Sequence record: MW748999.1
From: Escherichia phage vB_EcoM_Skers
Length of the DNA stretch: 64,000 nt
Direction: 5' to 3' (one strand)
Both the position numbers and the translations under genes were made by a program. This document shows, one piece after another, positions 1,777 through 33,897 of the stretch. The notes beneath the pieces were generated by a model. The model worked only from the letters and a program-made list of their open reading frames with translations. It was not told the origin of the DNA and ran no database searches. The stretch's first letter is position 1. Each line of letters starts with the position of its first letter.

Positions 1777-1804
1777 ATTATACACTGTTGCGTTACGCTG
1801 TCAA
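1777..1804 (-). promoter_or_regulatory. sigma70-type early promoter TTGACA-N16-TATAAT
   Basis: Minus strand reads GTTGACAGCGTAACGCAACAGTGTATAATACAAACATCGAAACAAAGAGAGGATTATATTATG; -35 at 1799-1804, -10 at 1777-1782. Confidence 0.7.
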
Positions 1805-2971
1805 CTCTTTTTCAAAAGATTTTACGATATACATGATAGTGCTCAATTCAGACGGCGCTACTGTCTCTGTCCAGCCATCCGGCATATCTTCTTTCGAGAT
1901 ATAGGAAGTTTTACCTTTCATCGCTTCCTTGATTTTGTTTTCTAATTCTAAGATCTTTTGACCATCTTGTAAAGTCAATTCATAAAAGATCTCGTGATCG
2001 AACTTTGAAACACGAGATTGGTTTCTCATGCGCTCATGTGTTTCTTTGTTTGTTATTCCAAATTTCACGCCAACAAAGGAATCATTGTTGGTTAATTTCT
2101 GTATATAAAGAGTTCCTGTCTTTAATGCCTGATAACCATGCTTAGAACACAACGGGCAGCGTGTTCCGCGATTAACAAAATTATCAATAGTTACAACCCA
2201 TTCATGGTTACGTTCGCATGTCAGAAGTATTCTTGTTAATGCACCTTTCCACTTTCCTGAAATCCCAATAAATTTTAGTCTGTTGGTTTCGCATATTTTT
2301 TCAATTTGTTTTAATCGGTCACTTTTTGTTATTGGTGCTGTTCCGCTACATTTGTGACACCGACGACCTAGTTTGAACTTATCATAACTTTGTTCGTAAA
2401 TGTGATTATTAGGACACTCAAATTTAAGTTTAGTTTTTGTTCCTTTCCATTCCCCAATTATACCCAAAAATTTATAATCTCCTTTATTTTCATTTATATA
2501 AGATAAGGAATCTTCTTTATCATACATCTTGCCACCGTTACATAAAGGACATCTTGTTTTTTGATGAATGAAATCTGTATATGTTGGTTGGTATGTGTGT
2601 CCGTTTGCACAGTTCATAATGAGTCTTGTTCTGCTATTTTTATACTCCCCACCAACAAAACCAACAAATACATCGTTTGTTTCTTGTTTTATTCTTTCTA
2701 TCACATGGTTTAGGTTTAATCTTTGAGAATCAACCACACATTTCTTACACGAAACTTTTTTCCTGATATTTGCTAGAGTTGATGTGTATTCATGCTTGTT
2801 ATTACATAATATAAGAGCTTTTGTTTTGAGACCAGACCATTCTCCAACAAACCCCATGAAAGAATAACCAACTTCCAAACATGAATTTTTTACAACATTT
2901 TCCCAATAGAAGGGAGTTTTCGTGTTTCCTTTTATTTCTATACGAATCTCATGTGCTTGACGTACTAACAT
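1793..2971 (-). CDS. putative GIY-YIG (T5orf172-like) nuclease with four N-terminal zinc-ribbon repeats; possible selfish/homing gene
   Basis: Four repeats of FVGEW.G.KTK...C...H.Y...C.xC; C-terminal GTLYIQKLTNNDSFVGVKFGITNKETHERMRNQ resembles the GIY-YIG core of I-TevI; start set at second ATG (2971) which has SD AAGGAGG, track start 3010. Confidence 0.55.
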   Translation of the reverse strand: MLVRQAHEIRIEIKGNTKTPFYWENVVKNSCLEVGYSFMGFVGEWSGLKTKALILCNNKHEYTSTLANIRKKVSCKKCVVDSQRLNLNHVIERIKQETNDVFVGFVGGEYKNSRTRLIMNCANGHTYQPTYTDFIHQKTRCPLCNGGKMYDKEDSLSYINENKGDYKFLGIIGEWKGTKTKLKFECPNNHIYEQSYDKFKLGRRCHKCSGTAPITKSDRLKQIEKICETNRLKFIGISGKWKGALTRILLTCERNHEWVVTIDNFVNRGTRCPLCSKHGYQALKTGTLYIQKLTNNDSFVGVKFGITNKETHERMRNQSRVSKFDHEIFYELTLQDGQKILELENKIKEAMKGKTSYISKEDMPDGWTETVAPSELSTIMYIVKSFEKELTA

Positions 2972-3001
2972 AATTTTATCCTCCTTTGTTTCGATGTTTG
3001 T

Positions 3002-3029
3002 ATTATACATCCTAACATCAGCATGTCAA
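3002..3029 (-). promoter_or_regulatory. sigma70-type early promoter TTGACA-N16-TATAAT (second copy of the 1777-1804 cassette)
   Basis: Minus strand GTTGACATGCTGATGTTAGGATGTATAATACAAACATCGAAACAAAGGAGGATAAAATTATG; shares about 33 bp with the 1746-1790 cassette. Confidence 0.7.
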
Positions 3030-4112: not shown

Positions 4113-4141
4113 ACTATATCAGATACTTAATTGCTTGTCAA
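4113..4141 (-). promoter_or_regulatory. sigma70-type promoter for gene 32 embedded in the 3' end of the upstream HNH gene
   Basis: Minus strand TTGACAAGCAATTAAGTATCTGATATAGT (TTGACA-N17-TATAGT), followed by a 46-nt AT-rich leader and SD AAGAGG. Confidence 0.6.
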
Positions 4142-4723
4142 TACTTTATCAATTATATCTAACAGTTTTGGCTTTCTATTTTCAAATTCTAACATCTCTT
4201 CGGGAGAAATGTCAACTACTTCTGTTTTGTTGAAAAAGTTTGGGTCTATAGCATCAGCAACAAAGTTTCTCGCAAGTGCTGCCGCTTTCTCATGAACATA
4301 TATTCCCAAATATATCAACTTCTTTCTTTCGACCTGAATATTGGCAACATATTTACCATCTCGTTTATAAAGACTAACACCGATATATTCAGACGATCGA
4401 CCTTTCTGTTTACCCATATTTCTTGAGTTTTGTTGCTCGTTCGCATCTCTCAAGTTTTCAATCCGATTATCTGTTATAATTCGGTTAACATGGTCAACGT
4501 ATTTTGGCATGTATCCATGATGCATAAAGAAAATTATTCTATGCTCTTTATGATGTTTACCATCGATACACACCAATCTGTATCCATGACTAGGATTAAC
4601 TCCACCCGCTCTAGATCCGACTTTATGCTTTCGGTTTGTCGATATCTTGCGAATCAGCTTACCGTTATCATATTTAAAGAGTTCATGACAACGAGCATAC
4701 AATTCAGGATCATATGTTTTCAC
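4127..4723 (-). CDS. free-standing HNH homing endonuclease with AP2 DNA-binding domain
   Basis: HNH_3-like HGYRLVCIDGKHHKEHRIIFFMHHG...VDHVNRIITDNRIENL followed by AP2-like SEYIGVSLYKRDGKYVANIQVERKKLIYLGIY; sits between 59 and 32 where T4 carries segG. Confidence 0.75.
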   Translation of the reverse strand: MKTYDPELYARCHELFKYDNGKLIRKISTNRKHKVGSRAGGVNPSHGYRLVCIDGKHHKEHRIIFFMHHGYMPKYVDHVNRIITDNRIENLRDANEQQNSRNMGKQKGRSSEYIGVSLYKRDGKYVANIQVERKKLIYLGIYVHEKAAALARNFVADAIDPNFFNKTEVVDISPEEMLEFENRKPKLLDIIDKVLTSN

Positions 4724-5396: not shown

Positions 5397-5651
5397 TTAA
5401 ATATCGAGAGTGTTGGTCGGTTCGTCGATCACTCCCTTCCTGAGTGTTCTATTTACTATACATTCTTGTGTGATCTTGTCAATAATGGACACCGGAATAT
5501 ACTTCTGATAGTGACCATATTCTATAGAGTTTTCCTCTACAAACTGAGTGGTCGCTTCAAGATAAGTCAATCCCTCTTCAACAACCAGTTTTTCGATTGC
5601 AAGACCGTTTGCTGTTTTGTTCGCGGCTTTTACCGCATGTTCATTAAGCAT
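5397..5651 (-). CDS. 33: late transcription co-activator gp33
   Basis: LTYLEATTQFVEENSIEYGHYQKYIP resembles T4 gp33; T4 position between dsbA and 59; start set at ATG 5651 overlapping the dsbA stop (track start 5666). Confidence 0.55.
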   Translation of the reverse strand: MLNEHAVKAANKTANGLAIEKLVVEEGLTYLEATTQFVEENSIEYGHYQKYIPVSIIDKITQECIVNRTLRKGVIDEPTNTLDI

Positions 5652-5919
5652 TGAACACCCGATCATAGAGTTCTACCGCTTCATCGCGTTCTGCTTCGAA
5701 GGTTTCGCGCTGTTGCTGGTGATACAGTTTAAACAGAATGCCCCACATTTTACCATCTACGCCTAATTCTTCTTTAGCACGCTGTTTGATCTCTTTGATC
5801 TTATCGCCATATGCTTCTTGAATGGTTTTCTGATCGCTGGCTTCTTTAATCAGTTGTGCCAGGGTATTTCCGTGTACATTTTCATCGAATACTACTTTTT
5901 CTTTTTTCTGTTCAGTCAT
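5644..5919 (-). CDS. dsbA: dsDNA-binding protein DsbA (late transcription enhancer)
   Basis: 91-aa basic protein at the T4 dsbA position; resembles T4 DsbA by recall (LIKEASD...ELGVDGKM...FEAE..VELYD.VF). Confidence 0.55.
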   Translation of the reverse strand: MTEQKKEKVVFDENVHGNTLAQLIKEASDQKTIQEAYGDKIKEIKQRAKEELGVDGKMWGILFKLYHQQQRETFEAERDEAVELYDRVFNA

Positions 5920-5924
5920 AATAT

Positions 5925-6524
5925 TTAACCCTCTTTCGTCATTAATTGAAAACCACGTTCAGCTTTTGAAATTTCGCTAGGACTTAAATCGTCACCAACA
6001 TATCCTAGCATCATTTCTCGGATAATGTCAAGTGCTTTTTCATCACCTGATTTTAACTCGAACTCAAGTTCATAATTCGCGCTTGTGTTGATATATCTAC
6101 CTATTCCTGCATAATTAAATGCATCGGTGCATATTTCAACTACGCCTATACCAGTATCAATTGTTCGAGCTACTCTAGCTGTCATAACATAAAATTGCGG
6201 TCTAAGTTGTGTTAAGTTAACACCCAAACAATTAACAAATTCAGAAAAATCTTGATAACTACAAAACACTATTTCTTCTCGGTTAAATAAACCGCTTTCG
6301 TGACTTCCATGTTTTATTAGAAATTTATTTGTCTTTTTGTCAAGACGTGCATACACTCCCTGTTTATGTAAAATATATTCTTCGTCATCATAATACGATT
6401 CTAGCTTATTATAGATTTTTCTGTCTACAATACTATAACAATCATATAACTTAGAACATGCGTCAAAAATAGACTTAAGCCCTTTGTTTGACCTTGCATA
6501 GTATTTTAATTCAAGTTCTTTCAT
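5925..6524 (-). CDS. CYTH/triphosphate-tunnel-metalloenzyme-like protein (no T4 counterpart at this position)
   Basis: N-terminal ExExK motif (MKELELKYYAR) and C-terminal alternating-acidic strand YELEFELKSGDE typical of the CYTH fold; 199 aa; tightly coupled between rnh and dsbA. Confidence 0.5.
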   Translation of the reverse strand: MKELELKYYARSNKGLKSIFDACSKLYDCYSIVDRKIYNKLESYYDDEEYILHKQGVYARLDKKTNKFLIKHGSHESGLFNREEIVFCSYQDFSEFVNCLGVNLTQLRPQFYVMTARVARTIDTGIGVVEICTDAFNYAGIGRYINTSANYELEFELKSGDEKALDIIREMMLGYVGDDLSPSEISKAERGFQLMTKEG

Positions 6525-6534
6525 ATGTCAACCC

Positions 6535-7482
6535 TTAGAACTCACCAATTTTCTGCAACATTTTAACTAACGCATTTGTTACAAAATAGTTATAAATCTT
6601 ACCGCGTGGTGCTGGTTTAGATTTCTCCCATGACTCCAGGATCTGATTCTGGATATTGTCTGGGATCTCGTCAAAGTCAATCAACTGACGGTTTTCATCA
6701 AATCGACGTGCTTCTTCCTCTGTCATCAAAGACTTTGGATCTTCGGCATCGAAAATTTGCTCTAACCATTTGGTTGCAATTGGTTTAGCTCGTTCTCCTT
6801 CCAGTCGTGAGATAATGAAATCACTACGGCACTTGATCGAAGCTACACCGTCTTTTGCGTCACCCTTAACACATTTTACCATAAGGTCTTTGTAAGGGCT
6901 ACCATATTTGCATTTCTTCCATGCTTTCTGTACTGGCGCCCACTGTTTCACGTTTTTGTATTTGTGCAACTGTGTGTAGTCACCATCGCCGGAGTTGATT
7001 AGCACCTGGCGACCTTCTACAGAAAACTTTTTAGTTAACACAGCGATTATATCATCCGCTTCAACTTTGTCAACCTTAATAACGTGATAAGGCATGTTCT
7101 CTTTAAACTCTTCGGTGATCTTATTGATCGCAGCAAAGATCATCTCCCAATCACGCGGATCTGCGTCTCGTTTTTCCTTACGGTTGCGTTTATAGTAAGG
7201 GGCGATATCACGTCGCCAGTAACCTTTGCTTGAATCAAAGGCAAGTACCGTAATTGGGTATTGCTCTTTGAATTTTGTCATATTATAACGCATGGTGTCA
7301 AGAATAAGATGACGGATCATGCCTTCACTAATAGGGTCTTCCGGTTTAAAGGTATGCGAGATAGTAGCAATCATAAGCTGCGACATATCAATCAAATGCA
7401 CACCTTCCGGCAGTTTATCTTCTGGAGCATCGAAGAAATCATTAAGTGTAGCGGTAGTTTTTGTAAACGGGTTATACGTCAT
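6535..7482 (-). CDS. rnh: RNase H (FEN-1-like 5'-3' exonuclease)
   Basis: Strong match to T4 RNase H by recall (GYWRRDIAPYYKRNR, VIKVDKVEADDIIAVL, GDGDYTQLHKYKNVKQW, RGKIYNYF). Confidence 0.9.
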   Translation of the reverse strand: MTYNPFTKTTATLNDFFDAPEDKLPEGVHLIDMSQLMIATISHTFKPEDPISEGMIRHLILDTMRYNMTKFKEQYPITVLAFDSSKGYWRRDIAPYYKRNRKEKRDADPRDWEMIFAAINKITEEFKENMPYHVIKVDKVEADDIIAVLTKKFSVEGRQVLINSGDGDYTQLHKYKNVKQWAPVQKAWKKCKYGSPYKDLMVKCVKGDAKDGVASIKCRSDFIISRLEGERAKPIATKWLEQIFDAEDPKSLMTEEEARRFDENRQLIDFDEIPDNIQNQILESWEKSKPAPRGKIYNYFVTNALVKMLQKIGEF

Positions 7483-7484
7483 AA

Positions 7485-7670
7485 TTAAGTTCTCTCCACT
7501 CTCACAACAACAGACTCATCAAACGAGCTAGATACTTCACGATCATACCCGTATTTCTCCATAACTCGCAGAATTGCATTGTTTAATTCGGCACGGAAAT
7601 AATTGTAATCCTTATCTGGGATTCTGTCAACTACCCATTTTGCACCATCTGACAAATCAAATTTAACCAT
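7485..7670 (-). CDS. hypothetical small protein upstream of rnh
   Basis: ORF track; SD AAGAGGA upstream; first gene of the minus-strand block divergent from gene 34. Confidence 0.5.
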   Translation of the reverse strand: MVKFDLSDGAKWVVDRIPDKDYNYFRAELNNAILRVMEKYGYDREVSSSFDESVVVRVERT

Positions 7671-14419: not shown

Positions 14420-17400
14420 ATGGCAGATTTAAACAGAATCCAGTTTAAACGCACTAGCGCAGCCGGACGTAAACCGGATGCTGGTACGATGAATCCGGGA
14501 GAGTTGGCAATTAACTTAGCAGACCAATATCTGCTTACAAAAAATGATGGTGGGCAAATTGTTAATTTAAGTTGCCCGCCAGTTTATGACAAGAGCGTAG
14601 ATCGGAAGAGCACACCGTCTGAACTCCAGTCACCGGCTATGATCTCGTTGACCGCCGTGGTCTACACGGCCCTGAACACTCTTTCCTACACGACGCTCTT
14701 CCGATCTGCAGATTTAAACAGAATCCAGTTTAAACGCACTAGCGCAGCCGGACGTAAACCGGATGCTGGTACGATGAATCCGGGAGAGTTGGCAATTAAC
14801 TTAGCAGACCAATATCTGCTTACAAAAAATGATGGTGGGCAAATTGTTAATTTAAGTTGCCCGCCAGTTTATGACAAGAGCGTTAATGTAAAAGGTCGTG
14901 TGGTTGCAGATGACCTTATGTGGAGTAATACCGCAAACTATTTCGATGACCCAACCGCACGGAATCTTGATAAATTCGGTGCATTTCGTACTAATGATAT
15001 GGATGGTCATCTAGCATTGGCTTTGCATATTCCTCATCCTAGCGGTATAAACCATGCTCGTGGGTTGGATTTTACTTATGGTTCTAACGTTGTTCCTACT
15101 GTAAAAACCTATGGTTATAACGCTGATGGTGCATTGGCATATTCATATCGCATGTATCACGAAGGTGATAAGCCTAGTCCGTCAGAATTAAATGTATACA
15201 GCAAACAAGAAGTAGATCGGATGTTCCAGAAGACCATCAACTTTGGTGTAGAAACTGGATGGTTTAAAATTGCTACAGCATTTATTCCGCAAAATGATGG
15301 ACGTAGCTTGAAAATTAGATTGGTTGGTGGAAATGGGTGGAACGTAGGCCAAACGGGACAATGTAATATTATTGAACTTGTTATAAGGACTAGCAACGGT
15401 TCCCCTAAAGGAATTAACTTTGTTGCATATCATCATGTTTCTGGTTACGAAAATCAATTTTGTGCCATTAATACAGGTGATGACACTTATGATATCTATG
15501 CATATTACTACGAATTTACTAATATGGTATTGGCTGAATATCAAGCGTCCAGCGATGTTAATTTAACTGTATTTGATCGACCTGAATATGTAGGCGAAAA
15601 ACCTGTAGCTGATCATATCTATGATGCATATACAATACGCTCCTTTAACAGTTTCAGTAACCGTGGAACATTAAATTTTGCTGGCAACCATCAAGGCCAA
15701 TATGACATTGAGCATATGAACGAACAACCGACAAATGCTAAAAAGATGTTGCGTCGGTTTCGAAGCTCTGCCAGCGCGACAATCTGGCATGAAACCGTTG
15801 ATGACCAGAATTATCGTCTTGCCGCTGGAAGTACAGACTCAAGTCAACAATTATTGTTGTCTACTGGGACTGGTTTGCATATTCGTAGATTGACCATCGA
15901 TGGTGGCTTAGGTTCCGGTTCTAATGCTGGTATTGATATTCGTCGAGGACCAAACGAATCAAGCCATTTTAATTTTATGGATTATCGCACTGGTCAAGAT
16001 GTTCGTAATGGTTGGTTTGGTTTTGGTGATTTGACGACCAAAGATTTTATTTGGTGGAACGATAACGGTCAAAACTCGATAAACTTGATCGAAAACGGTG
16101 AATTACATATTACTGGTGGTAAAGGCCAGAAAATTGTAATGAATAGCGAAGTTGCATTATCTGAAAATGCTCGTTTGGCTGTTAAAGGTGGTAATTATGG
16201 TTTGTTGTTCCGTAATGATGGTGTTAGTTTCCATATACTGACTACTAATTTAAAGGATTCTTTTGGAAATTGGAATAATCGTAGACCATTTAGTTATGAT
16301 TTTGCCGAAGGTGGATTGGATCTAGGTGGTACTGAAACTGCTCGTTGTTTGCATCTGGGGATCGATGGTAGTACCCGCATCGAAGATAACTTAGTTTTCC
16401 GATCTGGGTCGCGTCAATCAATGGACTATATTGAAATGATCCATTGGGGTAACAGTAATACAGGACGCAACAACGTTTTGAGTATGAAAGACTCGAAAGG
16501 ATTCTTGGCTGAATTTGAGCGCACCGGAACCAATAGCATTAAAACTAGATTCTTTGGTGAAACATTCACTGATGGTACATTATACCTAAATCAGATGAAT
16601 AATAGCTCTGAACGATTCTCTATCAATAATTGGGGAAATTCAGAAGTTGGTCGCGCGGCAGTCTTAGAAGTTGGTGATTCTAAAGGTTATCACTTTTATG
16701 CTGAACGCAGGACTGATAATAGTTCTTTGTTCTCTGTTGGTGGTGCTTTGTTTGTGCAGGGACCTTCCGGGATTATTATCAAAAACTCTGCTGGTGCTCG
16801 CCATGTTTGGTTTAAAGATGACGGTGATAATGAAAAGGCTGTTATTTGGGCGACCGATGAAGGTATATTACATCTACGAAATAATCATGATGGTGCATTT
16901 AGTCATCACTTCCAGGGCGCAATGATTAAACTGCAAGGGCGTGTTCCTTATGATGCAGCAAAGGGAATTGTTCGTGGTGAAGTTTCTGGTGGTGCATATG
17001 TTGCATGGAGAGACCGCCCTGCTGGTTTGTTAGTTGACTGCCAGCAAAGTGTTGATAGTGCTCATGCTGTTTGGAAAGCGGTTGATTGGGGGCGTCAATA
17101 TATCGCTGCTATGGACGTTCACTGTCCTGGTGATGGTAATAATACCGCAGCCGCTGTTCTTCATGTTCAGGCTGCTGATTATCAATTCCATGCAAGCGGA
17201 GAATTTCATGCCAGTGGCAACGGAAACTTTAACGATGTGTATATTCGTTCTGACCGTCGCCTTAAAGACAATATAGAAGATTATACTGGAAATGCGTTAA
17301 GTTTGATTGGTAAACTGAAAGTGAAAACTTACGATAAAGTTAAATCTCTTAAGGACCGTGAAATTATCGGTCACGAGATCGGCATTATCGCACAGGATTT

Positions 17401-17602
17401 ACAAGAAATATTACCGGAAGCTGTAAAATCTTCAAAAATTGGCAATCTTGATAATCCAGATGAAATTCTGACAATTTCTAACTCTGCCGTGAATGCTCTT
17501 TTAATTAAGGCTATTCAGGAAATGAGTGAAGAAATTAAAGAATTGAAAACACCTCTCTTTACTAAAATTGCTCGCAAAATTAGTAAATATTTTAAATTCT
17601 AA
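14420..17602 (+). CDS. 37: long tail fibre distal subunit gp37 with C-terminal intramolecular chaperone domain; ORF as given contains a 285-nt in-frame artefact
   Basis: N-terminus MADLNRIQFKRTSAAGRKPDAG..GELAINL matches the gp37 N-terminus; C-terminal YIRSDRRLKDNIEDYTG is the S74-type auto-cleaving chaperone motif; native length likely about 965 aa. Confidence 0.85.
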   Translation: MADLNRIQFKRTSAAGRKPDAGTMNPGELAINLADQYLLTKNDGGQIVNLSCPPVYDKSVDRKSTPSELQSPAMISLTAVVYTALNTLSYTTLFRSADLNRIQFKRTSAAGRKPDAGTMNPGELAINLADQYLLTKNDGGQIVNLSCPPVYDKSVNVKGRVVADDLMWSNTANYFDDPTARNLDKFGAFRTNDMDGHLALALHIPHPSGINHARGLDFTYGSNVVPTVKTYGYNADGALAYSYRMYHEGDKPSPSELNVYSKQEVDRMFQKTINFGVETGWFKIATAFIPQNDGRSLKIRLVGGNGWNVGQTGQCNIIELVIRTSNGSPKGINFVAYHHVSGYENQFCAINTGDDTYDIYAYYYEFTNMVLAEYQASSDVNLTVFDRPEYVGEKPVADHIYDAYTIRSFNSFSNRGTLNFAGNHQGQYDIEHMNEQPTNAKKMLRRFRSSASATIWHETVDDQNYRLAAGSTDSSQQLLLSTGTGLHIRRLTIDGGLGSGSNAGIDIRRGPNESSHFNFMDYRTGQDVRNGWFGFGDLTTKDFIWWNDNGQNSINLIENGELHITGGKGQKIVMNSEVALSENARLAVKGGNYGLLFRNDGVSFHILTTNLKDSFGNWNNRRPFSYDFAEGGLDLGGTETARCLHLGIDGSTRIEDNLVFRSGSRQSMDYIEMIHWGNSNTGRNNVLSMKDSKGFLAEFERTGTNSIKTRFFGETFTDGTLYLNQMNNSSERFSINNWGNSEVGRAAVLEVGDSKGYHFYAERRTDNSSLFSVGGALFVQGPSGIIIKNSAGARHVWFKDDGDNEKAVIWATDEGILHLRNNHDGAFSHHFQGAMIKLQGRVPYDAAKGIVRGEVSGGAYVAWRDRPAGLLVDCQQSVDSAHAVWKAVDWGRQYIAAMDVHCPGDGNNTAAAVLHVQAADYQFHASGEFHASGNGNFNDVYIRSDRRLKDNIEDYTGNALSLIGKLKVKTYDKVKSLKDREIIGHEIGIIAQDLQEILPEAVKSSKIGNLDNPDEILTISNSAVNALLIKAIQEMSEEIKELKTPLFTKIARKISKYFKF
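14423..14883 (+). repeat. perfect 176-bp direct duplication (14423-14598 and 14708-14883) flanking the adapter-derived insert
   Basis: The two copies are base-for-base identical and re-encode gp37 residues 2-60. Confidence 0.9.
14599..14707. other. Illumina adapter-derived sequence (library/assembly artefact)
   Basis: Begins AGATCGGAAGAGCACACCGTCTGAACTCCAGTCAC plus 8-nt index-like CGGCTATG and ATCTCGT; ends ACACTCTTTCCTACACGACGCTCTTCCGATCT; both are adapter sequences with single-base indels. Confidence 0.9.
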
Positions 17603-17638: not shown

Positions 17639-18418
17639 ATGGCAGTAGTTGGTGTTCCTGGTTGGATTGGAAGTTCAGCCGCAAATGAAACAGGACAACG
17701 TTGGATGAGTCAAGCGGCTGGACAATTAAGATTGGGTGTTCCCTGCTGGATGAGTCAATTTGCAGGTCGCTCGCGAGAAATTATTCATACTGTAGGAGCA
17801 AACCACAATTTTAATGGCCAGTGGTTCCGTGATAGATGCTTTGAAGCTGGCGGTGCACCTATTGTATTCAATATTGTCGGTGATATCGTTTCTTATTCTA
17901 AAGATGTACCACTTTTCTTTATGTATGGAGATACACCTAATGAATATGTGGTTCTTAATATTCATGGCGGAGTTCATATGTGGGGACGAGGTGGTAACGG
18001 TACTGTAAACGGAAACCCGGGCACAAATGGCGGCGATGTAATCCAAAATGATATCGGCGGAAGACTTCGTATTTGGAACTATGGCGTTATTGCATCAGGC
18101 GGCGGCGGTGGTGGTGCAGTGTCATTACAGAATAGCTGGGCGCCAAATGCTACAGCAGGTGGCGGTGGTGGTAGACCATTTGGCATCGGCGGAGGCGGCG
18201 TTAATTGGCCGGGTGGTAATGCTAGTTATGACGCACCGGGCGGAGCCGGTTACACTTCCCAATTCGGCGGAGGCAATGGCGGTGATGCTGGAGGTTGGGG
18301 TGGAGATGGATGGGGTAATCACTTATCTAGATCCGGCGGTGGTGCTCCAGGTAGAGCGGTATTCGGTTCTTCACCATCATGGGGTGCTGTAGGGACAATT
18401 TATGGATCTTACATTTAA
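17639..18418 (+). CDS. 38: T2-type receptor-binding adhesin gp38 with glycine-rich motifs
   Basis: N-terminus [50 protein letters not shown] closely matches the T2 gp38 N-terminus; C-terminal half has poly-Gly blocks separated by variable segments. Confidence 0.85.
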
Positions 18419-18478
18419 CCGTTAAAAAAGAATTAAGGAAAACTCCCACGGAAGGGAACTTACTAAGGAGAAACGGCT

Positions 18479-19694: not shown

Positions 19695-20002
19695 TCTGGA
19701 AACTTCCCGTAAATGTTCTCTGCCAACATACGCGCATCGCTAATGATATCTTTCATGCTATGACCGTAGTGTTCAGCCATTGAGTTGACACAATCAACAA
19801 AGAAATTATAACGGCGACGGTTTAAGATTTCTTCTCTGTTATAGTTTTCATATTTGACGGTCGAGTGTGCTTTCTCGATTGCCTTGATCGCTATATTGAC
19901 TTCATTGATAATGGTTTTAGCATTGTATGCGCCACGACGGATCAGGATATTTGTCAATTCTCTTGCAATATCTTGCAATTCTTCATATTCATGTTCAAAC
20001 AT
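19691..20002 (-). CDS. hypothetical protein
   Basis: ORF track 19691..20023 starts with TTG; internal ATG at 20002 has SD GAGAGG. Confidence 0.5.
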   Translation of the reverse strand: MFEHEYEELQDIARELTNILIRRGAYNAKTIINEVNIAIKAIEKAHSTVKYENYNREEILNRRRYNFFVDCVNSMAEHYGHSMKDIISDARMLAENIYGKFPE

Positions 20003-20026
20003 AATCAACCTCTCAAAATACAATCC

Positions 20027-22305: not shown

Positions 22306-22319
22306 CCAGTTTTTAGAAA

Positions 22320-22580
22320 TTATTTTCGCCATTCACCGGAAACAATGAAGTTTGTAAAGTGATTGTGGTCCGTGATAATGTCATTAAGTACCATATGCGG
22401 ATATGCTTTAGTGTAATCACGTTTACGATCAGTCATCCAACCAACGAAAGTCGGTGCAAAGTACGGCACACCGTCAGATGATGCCATATTAAACCCTTTA
22501 TCAGCCATAAATGCAGCCGCCCTAAGATTTTTAATTGAAGTAGTGCGACTAATTTCAAAAACTTTATCAGTAAAATTCAT
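22320..22580 (-). CDS. hypothetical protein (86 aa)
   Basis: ORF track; ATGA-type overlap with the upstream ORF. Confidence 0.5.
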   Translation of the reverse strand: MNFTDKVFEISRTTSIKNLRAAAFMADKGFNMASSDGVPYFAPTFVGWMTDRKRDYTKAYPHMVLNDIITDHNHFTNFIVSGEWRK

Positions 22581-22792
22581 TTTAAGCCCCCCGCTCGTGC
22601 ATTAATACGCATTTTCTGAATAGCCATGATCTGGCTTACTGCTTCTTCTTTACGTTCTTGCGTGATAACGTGACCAGATTCCGCAAACTCTCCAGCAACT
22701 TCTTCTACGATCTCGCGAACTTGAGAACGTCCAAAGATGCGGTTTCCTTCGTAGCTCATAAACTCTGTTACTACTTGCTCGATAGATTTCAT
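22577..22792 (-). CDS. hypothetical protein (71 aa)
   Basis: ORF track; SD AAGGAG upstream. Confidence 0.5.
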   Translation of the reverse strand: MKSIEQVVTEFMSYEGNRIFGRSQVREIVEEVAGEFAESGHVITQERKEEAVSQIMAIQKMRINARAGGLK

Positions 22793-22857: not shown

Positions 22858-23100
22858 TTAGAAATTTTTCGCTTCTTCTTCGGTCATCATCACCGCGCAT
22901 TCGTGCATAACTTTGAAAACCGGGTCAATCATATCGAATGCTTCGCGAGACAATTTACGAGAAGCGATTTTGATTGCTTCAACGTCTTCTACTACAGGAA
23001 CAAAAACAGTTTTCAGTTCATCGAGAACGGCAGCTTCTTTTTCATTCAGGAAGATTCCAGCGTCGTACAATGCAACTTCGATAACATTAACTTTAACCAT
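22858..23100 (-). CDS. hypothetical protein (80 aa)
   Basis: Track ORF 22858..23163 starts with TTG inside the promoter; start set at ATG 23100 (MVKVNVIEV) with SD GGAGG. Confidence 0.5.
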   Translation of the reverse strand: MVKVNVIEVALYDAGIFLNEKEAAVLDELKTVFVPVVEDVEAIKIASRKLSREAFDMIDPVFKVMHECAVMMTEEEAKNF

Positions 23101-23134
23101 TTTTATTTCCTCCAGTTCGTTTCGGTATGGGAGT

Positions 23135-23163
23135 ATAATACTACCGATGACCTTTGGCGTCAA
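23135..23163 (-). promoter_or_regulatory. early promoter TTGACG-N17-TATTAT
   Basis: Minus strand TTGACGCCAAAGGTCATCGGTAGTATTAT. Confidence 0.5.
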
Positions 23164-23365
23164 CTAGTTTTTTGTTATTTTCGTGAAATTTTTTCGTCGC
23201 CTCATGTGCTTTTCGCTGGGCTTCTAGTTGTGCTTTCTGGCGTGCTGCCTCTTGTGAAGCCATAACGGAAGCATTTGCAGCAGTTACAGCCGCGACCATC
23301 GCTGCGGTATTAGCATTTACCGTACATGCACTAGCCAGCAAAGCAATCGCAATCATTTTCTTCAT
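23141..23365 (-). CDS. small exported protein (signal peptide or possible lipoprotein)
   Basis: N-terminus MKKMIAIALLASACTVNANT (hydrophobic core plus LASAC); Ala/Gln/Lys-rich mature part. Confidence 0.5.
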   Translation of the reverse strand: MKKMIAIALLASACTVNANTAAMVAAVTAANASVMASQEAARQKAQLEAQRKAHEATKKFHENNKKLVDAKGHR

Positions 23366-23601
23366 AGTTTCCCCTTTAGGTTATCTTCGACCTTCACCCA
23401 TTCCGCGTATTCTTGCGCGGCTACTTTCGGATTTAGTCCGTCTTCGTACATTGCTTCAAGTAATTCTTCGTCGGTGGGCTTATACCCTAGATAAGCCTCC
23501 ACCTGATTTTTCCAAATTTTATACCAGTTCATATTATCACCAATCAAGAGCGCGTGTCTCTGCGTCTTCCCATGCTTGATCCATAACAGCCTTGAAAACA
23601 T
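23362..23601 (-). CDS. hypothetical protein (79 aa)
   Basis: ORF track; ATGA overlap with the downstream gene. Confidence 0.45.
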   Translation of the reverse strand: MFSRLLWIKHGKTQRHALLIGDNMNWYKIWKNQVEAYLGYKPTDEELLEAMYEDGLNPKVAAQEYAEWVKVEDNLKGKL

Positions 23602-31308: not shown

Positions 31309-33132
31309 TTATGATTGCATCCAAATTTTGCGTTGATCTGCATCTTCACTATAGAGCAAATCGAATAGCTCTTTATAGTTTTCCGGTAACGTGATGATCT
31401 CCATTACAGGATCGTTGATCACGCGATGATAATCTGATTCTGTAAGCGATGCTAACCCTTTGATATATCGAATGTTGTAACCTTTGATATTATCTCGGTC
31501 GTTCTCGAAATCTTCTAGGTCATAATACCATCGAACATCATCACCTTTCTTTGGTTCCGCAATGATAATAGGTGTTTTGATAAACCGGATTCGACCATCT
31601 TCGAACAATTCAGGCCAACGAGCAAAGAAAGAGATCAGACTAGGCTTAATAGACCCGATCCCGTCGGTATCAGCGTCTGTCATAATCGCAATATTTTTGT
31701 ATTGCATAACTTCCAATGCATCAACACCAAATTGCAAACCAGTGATCGCCATGATGTTAAAAATTTCAGCGTTCTTAACGATCTTTGCCTCCGGTTGTTC
31801 CCACGTTGTAAGAGTTTTGCCTCGCAACGGGAAACCGCCATGTAAATCTTGATCACGTACAGAGATCAGATAGTTGATCGCGGAATCACCTTCCGTCAAA
31901 AACAGGGTAGTTTCTGCGTCAGTTCCAATAAGGTTAGCTTTAACGTGCTTTGCTACCTTAGCCCGTTTTGCTGCCTTTGCTGCCTTAGTCGCTGCCGCTT
32001 TATCTGCTGCCTCTTTGCGTGCCAGGACTACAGCAATAATAGGCATGATAATGTTTTCTTTCTTCGCAATGACTTTAGCCAGCTTTTTAAAATCAAGATC
32101 AATATGACGCTTGATATCACCAGTCGGGTTAGTCAAGCGTTCTTTTGTCTGTGAATCAAAACGAAGGTTAGGCAATTCACGAACAATAAGAATACAGGTC
32201 AATCCAGATTTAACCGCAGCTTTAGTAACATCAACCTTATATTCTTTTTTGATTCGTTTTACAATCTCTTCACAAAGATCATCTGTCACATAATCAACGT
32301 GTGTTCCCCCGTTTTTGGTAAACAGACCGTTAGCAAAGGATACTGATTTAAAACCTTCTCCCTCGACCGCCGGAACGAGGGCAAGTGAAAAGTTTTTATC
32401 TTCAATGACAAACGGATCATCATTGTATAGTTTGGCATAATCCTTGAACTTGCTGGTTATCTTTTTGCCATTAAACTTAAACGTGATCTTAGGAAAGATT
32501 ACACTCAATGAATACATTCGATCGCAAATCACATCTGAAATTTCTTGTGACATGATCATACCTTCAAAATGATCGAAATCGGGGCAGAACGTAACCTTAG
32601 TTCCTTTCAGTTTTGACGGCTTAGATGACCAGCTAATATTTTCTGCACCATTGGTACATTGAACGGTCAGTTCATTCTCTCCGTCACACGTCACACCAGT
32701 AAACCAGGACGAGAAAAATGATGTGAGCGCGCTTCCGATCCCATTCATACCCATAGTAACACGATTTGTATCATCAAAGTTAGACCCTGCTTTAGCTCGT
32801 GTCCATGCAGCAACTGGTTGTGGAATCTGTTTCCCCTCTGGCGTCGTAACAATATGTTGCGGAATACCGCGACCATTATCTGTTACTGACACAATGTTAT
32901 CTTTTATATCCACACTAATAACATTAGCGTACTCAAAATTAGTGCGGATCGCCTCGTCTACCGAGTTGTCGATGATCTCATCAATGATTTTAACCAGTCC
33001 AGGAACGTATGAAACTTTGGTCCATTTTCCAAATAGGAAACGATTGTGTGATTCATAAGTCGTTGACCCGATGTACATTGAAGGTCTCTTAAGACAGTGA
33101 GCGCGATCATCTAACAGCAAAAATTCAGACAT
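31309..33132 (-). CDS. 39: DNA topoisomerase II large subunit, fused gp39/gp60 form (GyrB-like ATPase plus Toprim)
   Basis: 607-aa single ORF; GyrB-like N-terminus (RPSMYIGS, DNGRGIP) and Toprim EGDSA; no split or bypass as in T4 gene 60. Confidence 0.85.
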   Translation of the reverse strand: MSEFLLLDDRAHCLKRPSMYIGSTTYESHNRFLFGKWTKVSYVPGLVKIIDEIIDNSVDEAIRTNFEYANVISVDIKDNIVSVTDNGRGIPQHIVTTPEGKQIPQPVAAWTRAKAGSNFDDTNRVTMGMNGIGSALTSFFSSWFTGVTCDGENELTVQCTNGAENISWSSKPSKLKGTKVTFCPDFDHFEGMIMSQEISDVICDRMYSLSVIFPKITFKFNGKKITSKFKDYAKLYNDDPFVIEDKNFSLALVPAVEGEGFKSVSFANGLFTKNGGTHVDYVTDDLCEEIVKRIKKEYKVDVTKAAVKSGLTCILIVRELPNLRFDSQTKERLTNPTGDIKRHIDLDFKKLAKVIAKKENIIMPIIAVVLARKEAADKAAATKAAKAAKRAKVAKHVKANLIGTDAETTLFLTEGDSAINYLISVRDQDLHGGFPLRGKTLTTWEQPEAKIVKNAEIFNIMAITGLQFGVDALEVMQYKNIAIMTDADTDGIGSIKPSLISFFARWPELFEDGRIRFIKTPIIIAEPKKGDDVRWYYDLEDFENDRDNIKGYNIRYIKGLASLTESDYHRVINDPVMEIITLPENYKELFDLLYSEDADQRKIWMQS

Positions 33133-33138
33133 ATTATA

Positions 33139-33897
33139 TCATTCTCCGTCAGTTCGTTTCAGGTATTCCAATGCCGCATATAATCTTTGAGGATCGTCTT
33201 TGAACATCCCTAATCCGGCATTACATTTTCCACAAAGAACACCTCTTATCTTACCAGTCTTATGATTATGGTCAAGATGTTTCCACTTTTGGCGTTTTCT
33301 CTCGCCGCATCGTTCATTTATGAATTTTACACCGCATATCTCGCAATTGTCAACTCTGCCTAAAATTTCTAACGCTTCTCTTTTTGATATTTTTATACCA
33401 TTTTCGGCATGATGATATGGCCTATCTAGTTCTCGCTCTCGCTTCTCAAACAATCGACACTCATCAGAACAATACTTTTGAGATGCGTTTATTGCAACAA
33501 ATGGTTTACCACATTTAGCGCATTCTCGTTCAATCTTTATGTTTTGTGCCTGGTCCAACGATGCGCAACGAGAACAGCAAAATTTATGATAGCCTCTAGA
33601 GTATGTATGATAATTTACAGGATTTGGGCATCTTGCACACTTAACTATTCCTGTTATTCCGTGGCGCAATCTATAAACAGCCTCGTTATATGGTTGTTGA
33701 TTTCTGAGACCTCCATTACAGAACTTAAACTCATTCCTTATAATCTGAAATTCCGCAGGATACAATTTTTCCATTTCTGGAATTTTATTTTCTTTAAAAA
33801 GATTTGAGTTTAGTCTATTTCCGCTTTTCGCCTCCAGAACATCAACAATAAACTTTTTGATGTTCACTTTTCTCTCTCCAATACATAACATAACCAT
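33139..33897 (-). CDS. Endonuclease VII-type nuclease with Cys-rich zinc-ribbon N-terminal region; probable free-standing homing endonuclease
   Basis: C-terminal HLDHNHKTGKIRGVLCGKCNAGLGMF matches the T4 endo VII (gp49) catalytic motif; N-terminal CxxC pairs CARCP...CCSRC, CAKCG...CSDEC. Confidence 0.65.
   Translation of the reverse strand: MVMLCIGERKVNIKKFIVDVLEAKSGNRLNSNLFKENKIPEMEKLYPAEFQIIRNEFKFCNGGLRNQQPYNEAVYRLRHGITGIVKCARCPNPVNYHTYSRGYHKFCCSRCASLDQAQNIKIERECAKCGKPFVAINASQKYCSDECRLFEKRERELDRPYHHAENGIKISKREALEILGRVDNCEICGVKFINERCGERKRQKWKHLDHNHKTGKIRGVLCGKCNAGLGMFKDDPQRLYAALEYLKRTDGE

Follow-up and report, generated by a model that had tools for sequence, protein, structure and literature searches.

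The 64,000-nt stretch of Escherichia phage vB_EcoM_Skers (MW748999.1) analysed here, hereafter the window, carries a gene of 199 codons between rnh and dsbA that belongs to the CYTH or triphosphate tunnel metalloenzyme (TTM) family. We consider it probable, though well short of certain, that its product is a catalytically competent, metal-dependent TTM phosphohydrolase that prefers organic triphosphates, is accessory to the phage, and is encoded by a gene with a recombining cassette. An earlier note, made without database searches, had described this open reading frame (ORF) at 5925..6524 on the minus strand and its likeness to CYTH proteins; the coordinates proved correct. The note missed the most unusual feature of the gene: its central 420 nt are a replaced cassette. 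The likeness to CYTH proteins and ygiF was on record earlier, as the entry for the RB49 orthologue RB49p245, also located between rnh and dsbA, carries the remark 'similar to ... ygiF', and Nolan et al. 2006 tabulated the same gene, RB49ORF244c, with a CYTH match (E 0.0026). The exchangeable cassette of this gene and the remodelled pocket of the phage copies are new.

A predicted tunnel fold closest to YgiF

According to the ORF translation, the 199-aa protein begins with MKELELKYYARSNK, and its residues 151–162 are YELEFELKSGDE. Both CYTH hallmarks that the earlier note had read from it are present: ExExK at residues 3–7 and ELEFELK at residues 152–158. Used as a single query, the window protein yielded no meaningful Pfam, NCBIfam or PDB family and no match in PADLOC; the hits to Pfam His_Phos_2 (E 0.14) and to a Cas2 structure in the PDB (E 0.53) were at chance level and were discarded. 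Its only match was PHROG 14893 (E 2.6e-76), whose function is given as unknown in PHROG. A profile of 19 family sequences had a sole match in the PDB, E. coli YgiF (5a60), aligned over residues 2–194 against 5–200 with E 4.3e-12. Pfam CYTH (PF01928) was matched by 17 of the 19 aligned family members at E ≤ 0.1, and precomputed PF01928 matches exist for most RB49-type relatives.

The AlphaFold 2 (AF2) model of the window protein was predicted with high scores (pLDDT 90.8; pTM 0.85) and comprises eight strands (residues 2–10, 32–46, 57–62, 67–76, 79–87, 108–123, 127–140 and 150–160) and a C-terminal plug helix (187–196). In Foldseek, the model was recognized as an eight-strand TTM barrel, with YgiF 5a60 as the top match (E 5e-10; query-normalized TM score, TMq, 0.77). 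The subsequent PDB matches were archaeal, plant and bacterial TTMs, thiamine triphosphatases (ThTPases), class IV cyclases and Mediator Med18/20. In total, 57 PDB entries matched at E ≤ 1e-3, and all of the top 50 listed were TTM structures or complexes containing Med18/Med20. Among viral models, the best match was a Krischvirus orthologue (TM 0.92, 57% identity), and giant-virus capping triphosphatases (mRNA 5′-phosphatases) were weak fold matches (TM ∼0.5). Overall, the family profile, the Pfam matches of the relatives, the AF2 model and the Foldseek results support the assignment to the CYTH/TTM family.

The phage protein and the TTM domain of YgiF (PDB 5A60/5A61) share ExExK, the catalytic Arg, the Lys of strand 4 and the ExE of strand 8, together with an SKAxRG plug-helix motif and an 'ELELELxSGD' strand. 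They are ∼17% identical. Whereas YgiF has 433 residues, the phage protein has 199, its C-terminus lying directly behind the plug helix, and is without the linker and the CHAD domain of YgiF; many cellular homologues of ∼200 aa likewise lack CHAD. It also lacks a ∼12-residue insertion that follows strand 5 in YgiF.

Conservation of the catalytic residues

The two metals of YgiF are bound by E160 (metal 1) and by E4, E6 and E162 (metal 2), with R56 as the likely donor of the proton and K69 setting the orientation of the substrate (PMC4641920). In the profile alignment, the YgiF residues E4/E6/R56/K69/E160/E162 correspond to E3/E5/R60/K71/E154/E156 of the window protein. The ExExK and ELEFEL segments singled out in the earlier note are thus the metal-binding strands of YgiF, with E3/E5 equivalent to E4/E6 and E154/E156 to E160/E162.

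To gauge conservation, residues were counted in representatives of 43 phage clusters and in 77 cellular homologues of ∼200 aa. E3, E5, R60, E154 and E156 were invariant in both sets, as were E152, R82 and R117. ExExK (E3-L-E5-L-K7) was present in 43/43 phage and 76/77 cellular sequences, and K158 in all phage copies and 66/77 cellular sequences. Invariance of K71 was confined to the phage copies; which cellular residue corresponds to it varies with the alignment used. Because the catalytic residues are conserved, the window protein is predicted to be catalytically active. By homology, the triphosphate would be held in the barrel by Arg60, Lys71, Arg82 and Arg117, with one Mg2+/Mn2+ bound to Glu154 and a second to Glu3, Glu5 and Glu156; hydrolysis of the terminal phosphate would follow binding of the two metals.

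The earlier note had also raised the possibility that the protein manipulates nucleotide second messengers, and had listed class IV adenylyl cyclase among the CYTH activities. Class IV adenylyl cyclases have three sequence signatures (Vogt et al. 2021, PMC8233210): an HF motif separated from ExExK by four residues (HFxxxxExExK), a small neutral residue in place of the first Arg of the strand-3 xRxR motif, and an Ala in place of the second Glu of the strand-8 ExE. All three are absent from the 43 phage sequences, in which only Met-Lys precedes ExExK and both R60 and E156 are kept and invariant. The phage protein shares the superfamily fold and the two-metal site with CyaB and YpAC-IV (PDB 3N10, 2FJT), but lacks the HFxxxxExExK extension and keeps the Arg that blocks the binding mode of the cyclases as well as the second Glu of ExE. 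The option of second-messenger synthesis is therefore not supported. Because all three signatures fail, the 'adenylate cyclase' label in the GenBank records of PHB13, AV108 and KMB43 is probably wrong.

A remodelled tunnel in the phage copies

Beyond the shared catalytic residues, the tunnel of the phage copies differs from that of all cellular homologues compared. Approximately 11 tunnel substitutions are fixed or nearly so in the phage representatives. At position 9, Tyr occurs where cellular proteins have Leu, Ala or Ser; at position 40, Lys for Leu; and at position 42, Glu for Asn or Ser. Position 58 is Tyr in 42/43 phage sequences and Ala in 76/77 cellular ones, and position 62 is Asp in 43/43 and Arg in 77/77, respectively. 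The remaining replacements, given as phage versus cellular, are Phe versus His or Ser (position 80), Val versus Thr (113), Thr versus Phe (115), Cys versus Ala (132), Phe versus Gly (136) and Tyr versus Val or Ile (138). All eleven substituted positions have the same strand register as the known tunnel-facing catalytic residues.

Two of these substitutions flank the catalytic Arg on strand 3. YgiF has a small residue followed by RxR (G54-L-R56-I-R58), whereas the phage protein has Y58-A-R60-L-D62, such that Gly54 is replaced by Tyr58 and Arg58 by Asp62. In ThTPase, the thiazolium ring is stacked by an aromatic residue, Trp53, located two residues ahead of the catalytic Arg; more generally, the organic part of the substrate lies on the plug-helix side in TTM hydrolases (PMC8233210). 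Tyr58 is the counterpart of Trp53. Mammalian 25-kDa ThTPase (PDB 5A64/3BHD) and the phage protein have in common the TTM fold (TM 0.53–0.57), the aromatic residue two positions before the catalytic Arg, and both Glu residues of ExE, at an identity of 12–14%. The W/YxRxR motif of ThTPases is nevertheless only partially present in the phage protein: Y58 and R60 match, and the second Arg is Asp62.

Because one phosphate-binding Arg has been lost and a new aromatic cluster gained, these comparisons suggest that the substrate is an organic triphosphate rather than inorganic tripolyphosphate (PPPi). In the mechanism we propose, one end of the tunnel would have been rebuilt in the phage copies by Tyr9, Tyr58, Phe80, Phe136 and Tyr138, together with Asp62 in place of the second Arg of RxR. 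The preferred substrate would then be a nucleoside, deoxynucleoside or thiamine-type triphosphate, cleaved to R-PP and Pi, more likely than free tripolyphosphate.

An exchangeable cassette within the gene

The middle of the gene (nt 31–450) was left unaligned by blastn to RB49, G2494, L007 and L009, while the flanks were 94–99% identical. In 30-nt windows, identity dropped from 97–100% to ∼50% inside the cassette and then recovered. The junctions, at gene nt ∼30 and ∼450, were sharp and the same for every pair of allele types, with the 5′ drop at nt ∼30–33. Against phage kvi, the alignment gap spanned 6077–6494.

Clustering of the middle 140 residues yielded four types within Krischvirus: type A (the window and P0001–P0006), type B (the RB49 type, 33 clusters), type C (P0036) and type D (P0040). 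P0044, which is more distant, fell outside types A–D. Middle segments were 35–57% identical between types, and the ends were 88–98% identical among Krischvirus types and 58–65% identical to P0044. At the nucleotide level, the identity of the 3′ segment to types A–C was mostly 90–100% per 30-nt window, the lowest value being 0.80 at the 3′ end; to type D it was 0.73–0.97. RB49p245 and the other Krischvirus orthologues (PHROG 14893) agree with the window protein in position and length and are near-identical to it in the first 10 and last ∼49 residues. By contrast, residues 11–150 of RB49p245 are ∼41% identical (58% overall), and the corresponding DNA is unalignable.

All 58 sequenced isolates carried type B. 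Type A appeared only in one NCBI assembly and a handful of assemblies from metagenomes or SRA data. The G+C content of the cassette was 32% in type A, 34.5% in C, 36.6% in D and 38.8% in B, relative to 39% in the backbone and flanks. Because the G+C content of type B equals that of the backbone and that of type A is 32%, these data suggest that type B is the resident form and that type A was imported from an AT-richer relative via recombination in the conserved strand-coding ends. The central 420 nt would thus be swapped through recombination events located in the two conserved segments coding for the catalytic acidic strands, and the window would carry a rare, AT-rich and probably imported cassette type. 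No DNA match to a donor was found using blastn of the 420 nt against 50,697 phage records or megablast against 5,426 E. coli genomes. A search of 5.8 billion proteins returned six near relatives only; the two that were looked up, P0001 and P0004, were both in Krischvirus context. The foreign cassettes may have come from the lineages of P0044 and P0121.

Synonymous sites were saturated between types (proportion of synonymous differences, pS, ∼0.8). At the gene ends, pS was 0.09–0.12 among types A–C and 0.28 for the B–D pair. Within allele types, the ratio of nonsynonymous to synonymous rates (dN/dS) was 0.15–0.30. Because pS is saturated between types and dN/dS is low within them, the alleles are old and under purifying selection, and did not arise from rapid local diversification. 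A diversity-generating retroelement and fast positive selection were rejected as explanations in view of the changes at all bases, the indels, the saturated pS and the low dN/dS. An 11-nt imperfect direct repeat that flanks the cassette (6061–6071 and 6508–6518) encodes no more than E-L-E of the catalytic strands and was given no weight by itself.

The exchange did not affect the two faces of the barrel equally. In the cassette strands, 21/35 positions of tunnel parity were identical across five allele types versus 1/35 outward positions (Fisher p 2e-7). These data indicate that the active site was held constant while the exterior was replaced. The swap is thus a natural experiment on constraint in the TTM fold.

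Mosaicism is normal for this genome. Against kvi, whose backbone is 94–98% identical, the first 50 kb of the window contained about ten unaligned islands, the others being in tail-fibre adhesin regions and small early ORFs. Like the adhesin and other polymorphic loci of T4-like phages, the TTM gene contains a divergent stretch with sharp boundaries in such a backbone. Unlike at those loci, the gene affected by the swap encodes an enzyme, the junctions fall in the DNA for its two catalytic strands, and the lining of the active site is kept across cassette types. According to megablast, the other non-kvi segments comprise 14590..14707, 16522..17467 and 17950..18421 in tail-fibre distal or adhesin genes, and 19758..20017, 22307..22589, 22872..23374 and 33080..33883 in small hypothetical early ORFs or near a gyrase-B-like gene. 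A second small mosaic patch occurs at ∼6614..6704 (minus strand) in the 3′ part of rnh, where ∼90 nt encoding the C-terminal region of RNase H are 60–77% identical to RB49, L003 and L007 and 83–100% identical to L011 and L012.

Distribution of the TTM gene

The window derives from a Krischvirus (RB49-like phage), and its flanking DNA is 96–98% identical to G2494, MIZ4 and kvi. Using tblastn, the TTM protein was found in 58 phage records, all of Escherichia or Shigella Krischvirus and always at <60% identity. The earlier note had described the gene as inserted into a conserved operon. This description holds only relative to T4, in which dsbA follows rnh directly after an 8-nt gap; in 58/58 matching Krischvirus records, the gene occupies the same position. 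A survey of the rnh–dsbA interval thus found it genus-wide in Krischvirus and missing from T4, and the TTM gene is a long-known resident of the genus and not a new insertion.

Outside the genus, the gene was found in two more distant, uncultured T4-like lineages. In P0044 (∼43% identical), it is flanked by rnh, dsbA and gene 33. In P0121 (39% identical), dsbA and gene 33 lie downstream, and the contig starts 31 nt before the gene. In a hidden Markov model (HMM) search of 1.84 billion representatives, the Krischvirus copies, P0044 and P0121 were the only phage-type members, and the next matches were bacterial stand-alone or CHAD-fused CYTH proteins. A scan of IMG/VR with the family alignment found three loci, all RB49-type. 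The likely ancestors of the phage copies are stand-alone, YgiF-like CYTH proteins from Proteobacteria. Among the cellular relatives found, P0043 (∼30% identity; L005/L006 3597..4187) is the closest; this stand-alone CYTH protein is encoded on a bacterial contig, upstream of an RsmD-like methyltransferase gene and in divergent orientation next to genes for a PhoU-like protein and a PHO4 phosphate transporter.

In the plaque-forming isolate G2494 (L002, 3406..4001), a frameshift at codon ∼59, in the GIYARLD strand, splits the gene into ORFs of 66 and 130 aa. A 130-aa product, likened to such a truncation by length alone, occurs on a separate metagenome contig (P0042). Because it is absent from T4 and frameshifted in G2494, the TTM gene is probably accessory and not essential.

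Substrate and function

To our knowledge, no phage triphosphate tunnel enzyme has a known role. In agreement with the earlier note, which knew of no characterized T-even example, a search of the available literature found no functional study of any phage CYTH/TTM protein. A phage-resistant ygiF mutant of P. aeruginosa is not applicable to the phage enzyme, as it concerns a host gene and has a surface-polysaccharide explanation.

Several points weigh against an active, accessory phosphohydrolase that prefers organic triphosphates. The window protein alone reaches no Pfam threshold and gives no CYTH match. The tunnel-facing assignment was made from strand parity anchored on known catalytic residues, not from model coordinates. 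YgiF, the nearest characterized relative, is specific for PPPi, which makes PPPi a serious candidate substrate, and Asp62 might add a metal site instead of changing specificity. Finally, the frameshift in G2494 could be a sequencing error, and co-transcription of the gene with its neighbours was deduced solely from gene spacing.

The main rivals of the organic-triphosphate reading are PPPi hydrolysis and RNA 5′-end processing. In the first, the protein would be a plain inorganic tripolyphosphatase (PPPase), like YgiF and NeuTTM, that clears PPPi or short polyphosphate for phosphate recycling or to remove a chelating by-product. This is possible, albeit unlikely. It would fit the specificity of YgiF, the closest solved and characterized relative, the retention of all metal ligands and the catalytic Arg, and the location of P0043 next to phosphate-transport genes (PhoU/PHO4). 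However, the second Arg of RxR is Asp in 43/43 phage representatives, and five aromatic residues occupy tunnel positions where Ala, Gly, Val, His or Leu is found in the 77 cellular homologues. Less positive charge and a hydrophobic pocket are not expected for a substrate with five negative charges. Moreover, the phage protein has no CHAD polyphosphate-binding domain, and bulk PPPase activity in E. coli is already supplied by inorganic pyrophosphatase (PMC3440374). If the substrate were only PPPi, the finding would be ordinary.

A more specific function, which we regard as quite unlikely, is that of a counter-defence or host-takeover enzyme that destroys a triphosphate nucleotide, be it a non-canonical immune-signal (deoxy)nucleoside triphosphate, a linear oligonucleotide precursor bearing 5′-ppp, or an alarmone. 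Deoxyinosine triphosphate (dITP) is a non-canonical immune-signal nucleotide in the Kongming system. The variable exterior hints that some host component interacts with the surface of the TTM protein. It is a correspondingly speculative thought that exchangeable surface cassettes are kept because host inhibitors or immune sensors recognize the exterior, with type A as an escape variant. If the substrate were a nucleotide signal or a non-canonical nucleotide, the phage TTM would represent a new enzyme class in phage counter-defence.

The second main rival, an RNA 5′-triphosphatase acting either on 5′-ppp Okazaki primers, thereby aiding the RNase H encoded next to it, or on transcripts of phage or host, is improbable. 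The gene lies 10 nt from rnh and is found directly upstream of dsbA in three lineages, with rnh visible in two, and the giant-virus RNA triphosphatases with a TTM fold were among the structural matches. Nevertheless, T4 and most T4-like phages process primers without a TTM gene, the matches to capping-enzyme triphosphatases were far weaker than that to YgiF, and a tunnel closed by a plug helix and containing an aromatic pocket would suit a small molecule better than a polymer.

It is very unlikely that the protein is a non-catalytic binder, sponge or decoy whose variable exterior makes protein–protein contacts with host factors. The exterior is indeed extremely variable around a fixed tunnel, and phage sponges for nucleotide signals are reportedly a known strategy. 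A pure binder would not be expected to keep a complete two-metal acidic patch and the proton-donor Arg, which are invariant; catalysis has been lost in inactive TTM folds, Med18/Med20 among them (PMC4641920). Least credible is synthesis of cyclic AMP or another cyclic nucleotide by a class IV adenylyl (or other nucleotidyl) cyclase, for which the GenBank annotation and the presence of CyaB structures among the fold matches (TMq 0.50–0.54) speak, and against which stands the lack of the HF motif, of a small residue at the R60 position and of Ala at the E156 position in 43/43 phage sequences.

Returning to a phosphohydrolase of organic triphosphates, the TTM gene is fixed at one locus across a genus whose coliphages are widely used, and none of the 77 bacterial homologues compared shows its active-site signature. 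Because of this genus-wide fixation and distinct signature, it is a tractable candidate for a new substrate specificity in an old family. The analysis also corrects the cyclase label in some GenBank records.

Gene neighbourhood and promoter-like sites

The TTM gene is separated from rnh, whose ORF ends at 6535 with the stop codon included, by the 10 nt at 6525–6534, and from the ATG of dsbA at 5919 by the 5 nt at 5920–5924, as the earlier note had stated. This close spacing makes it probable that the TTM gene shares a transcript with the replication and late-transcription genes rnh-dsbA-33-59-32. Beyond dsbA, the order is gene 33, gene 59, an HNH-AP2 homing-endonuclease gene and gene 32, all confirmed using Pfam (both N and C domains for gp59). 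The features are summarized in Table 1.

Table 1. Features of the TTM gene and its surroundings in the window.
Feature	Position	Strand	Evidence
TTM/CYTH gene, YgiF lineage without CHAD domain	5925..6524	-	ORF, PHROG 14893, YgiF profile match, AF2, Foldseek
Conserved 5′ segment, codons 1-10 (MKELELKYYA), ExExK strand; 5′ recombination junction at its end	6495..6524	-	97-100% nt identity to all Krischvirus types
Exchangeable central cassette, codons 11-150, type A, 32% GC	6075..6494	-	blastn gap, 30-nt identity windows, GC
Codons 58-62 (Y-A-R-L-D), catalytic Arg60 with phage-specific Tyr58 and Asp62; cellular Ala-x-Arg-x-Arg	6339..6353	-	alignments, counts; motif from PMC8233210
Conserved 3′ segment, codons 151-199 + stop: ExExE-K strand (E152, E154, E156, K158), helix 163-172, plug helix 187-196	5925..6074	-	nt identity
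Candidate sigma-70-like site TTGACA-17-TAAAAT across TTM start codon	6503..6531	-	consensus scan, 11/12 matches
Candidate site with perfect sigma-70 consensus TTGACA-16-TATAAT, TGn before -10, inside rnh	7046..7073	-	consensus scan, 12/12
rnh (T4-type RNase H / 5′-3′ exonuclease), directly upstream	6535..7482	-	Pfam RNaseH_C E 5e-38, 5_3_exonuc_N E 4e-18
dsbA (dsDNA-binding late-transcription factor), 5 nt downstream	5644..5919	-	Pfam Phage_DsbA E 5e-22
Gene 33 (late-transcription co-activator), overlaps dsbA end	5397..5666	-	Pfam Trans_coact E 1.8e-26

The earlier note had stated that the gene has no promoter of its own. This is correct inasmuch as the site in the spacer cannot serve the ORF, since its transcript would start inside the gene; the statement overlooked that two sigma-70-like matches exist, at 6531..6503 and 7073..7046. 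In the first, TTGACA lies within the rnh–TTM spacer and TAAAAT within codons 6–8, and the sequence is found in every allele type. A transcript from it is predicted to start close to where the variable cassette begins on its 5′ side. This proximity may be a coincidence because the −10 element is dictated by the ELK codons. The second candidate points toward the TTM gene and dsbA and carries no promoter annotation in RB49.

Genes 59 and 32 have the homing-endonuclease-like HNH-AP2 gene (4127..4723, minus strand) between them, which shares 14 nt with the end of gene 59. The window, G2494, kvi and L012 carry this gene, and RB49 and L003 lack it; at the same junction, T4 has a different endonuclease, the GIY-YIG protein SegG. 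Just downstream of gene 32, a 405-aa ORF (1793..3010, minus strand) contains four CapR-homology repeats with treble-clef zinc-finger matches (Pfam E 2.7e-29). It sits in a 1160-bp island (1813–2972) that is unaligned to kvi, which has two 109-aa ORFs there. The corresponding position is occupied by a 338-aa CapR protein in L012 and is annotated as 'endonuclease' in RB49. Finally, the interval between rnh and gene 34, which is transcribed divergently, contains a 61-aa ORF (7485..7670, minus strand) without a Pfam match; this ORF is missing from the matching interval of T4 and is kept in Krischvirus records (RB49p247, kvi_114).

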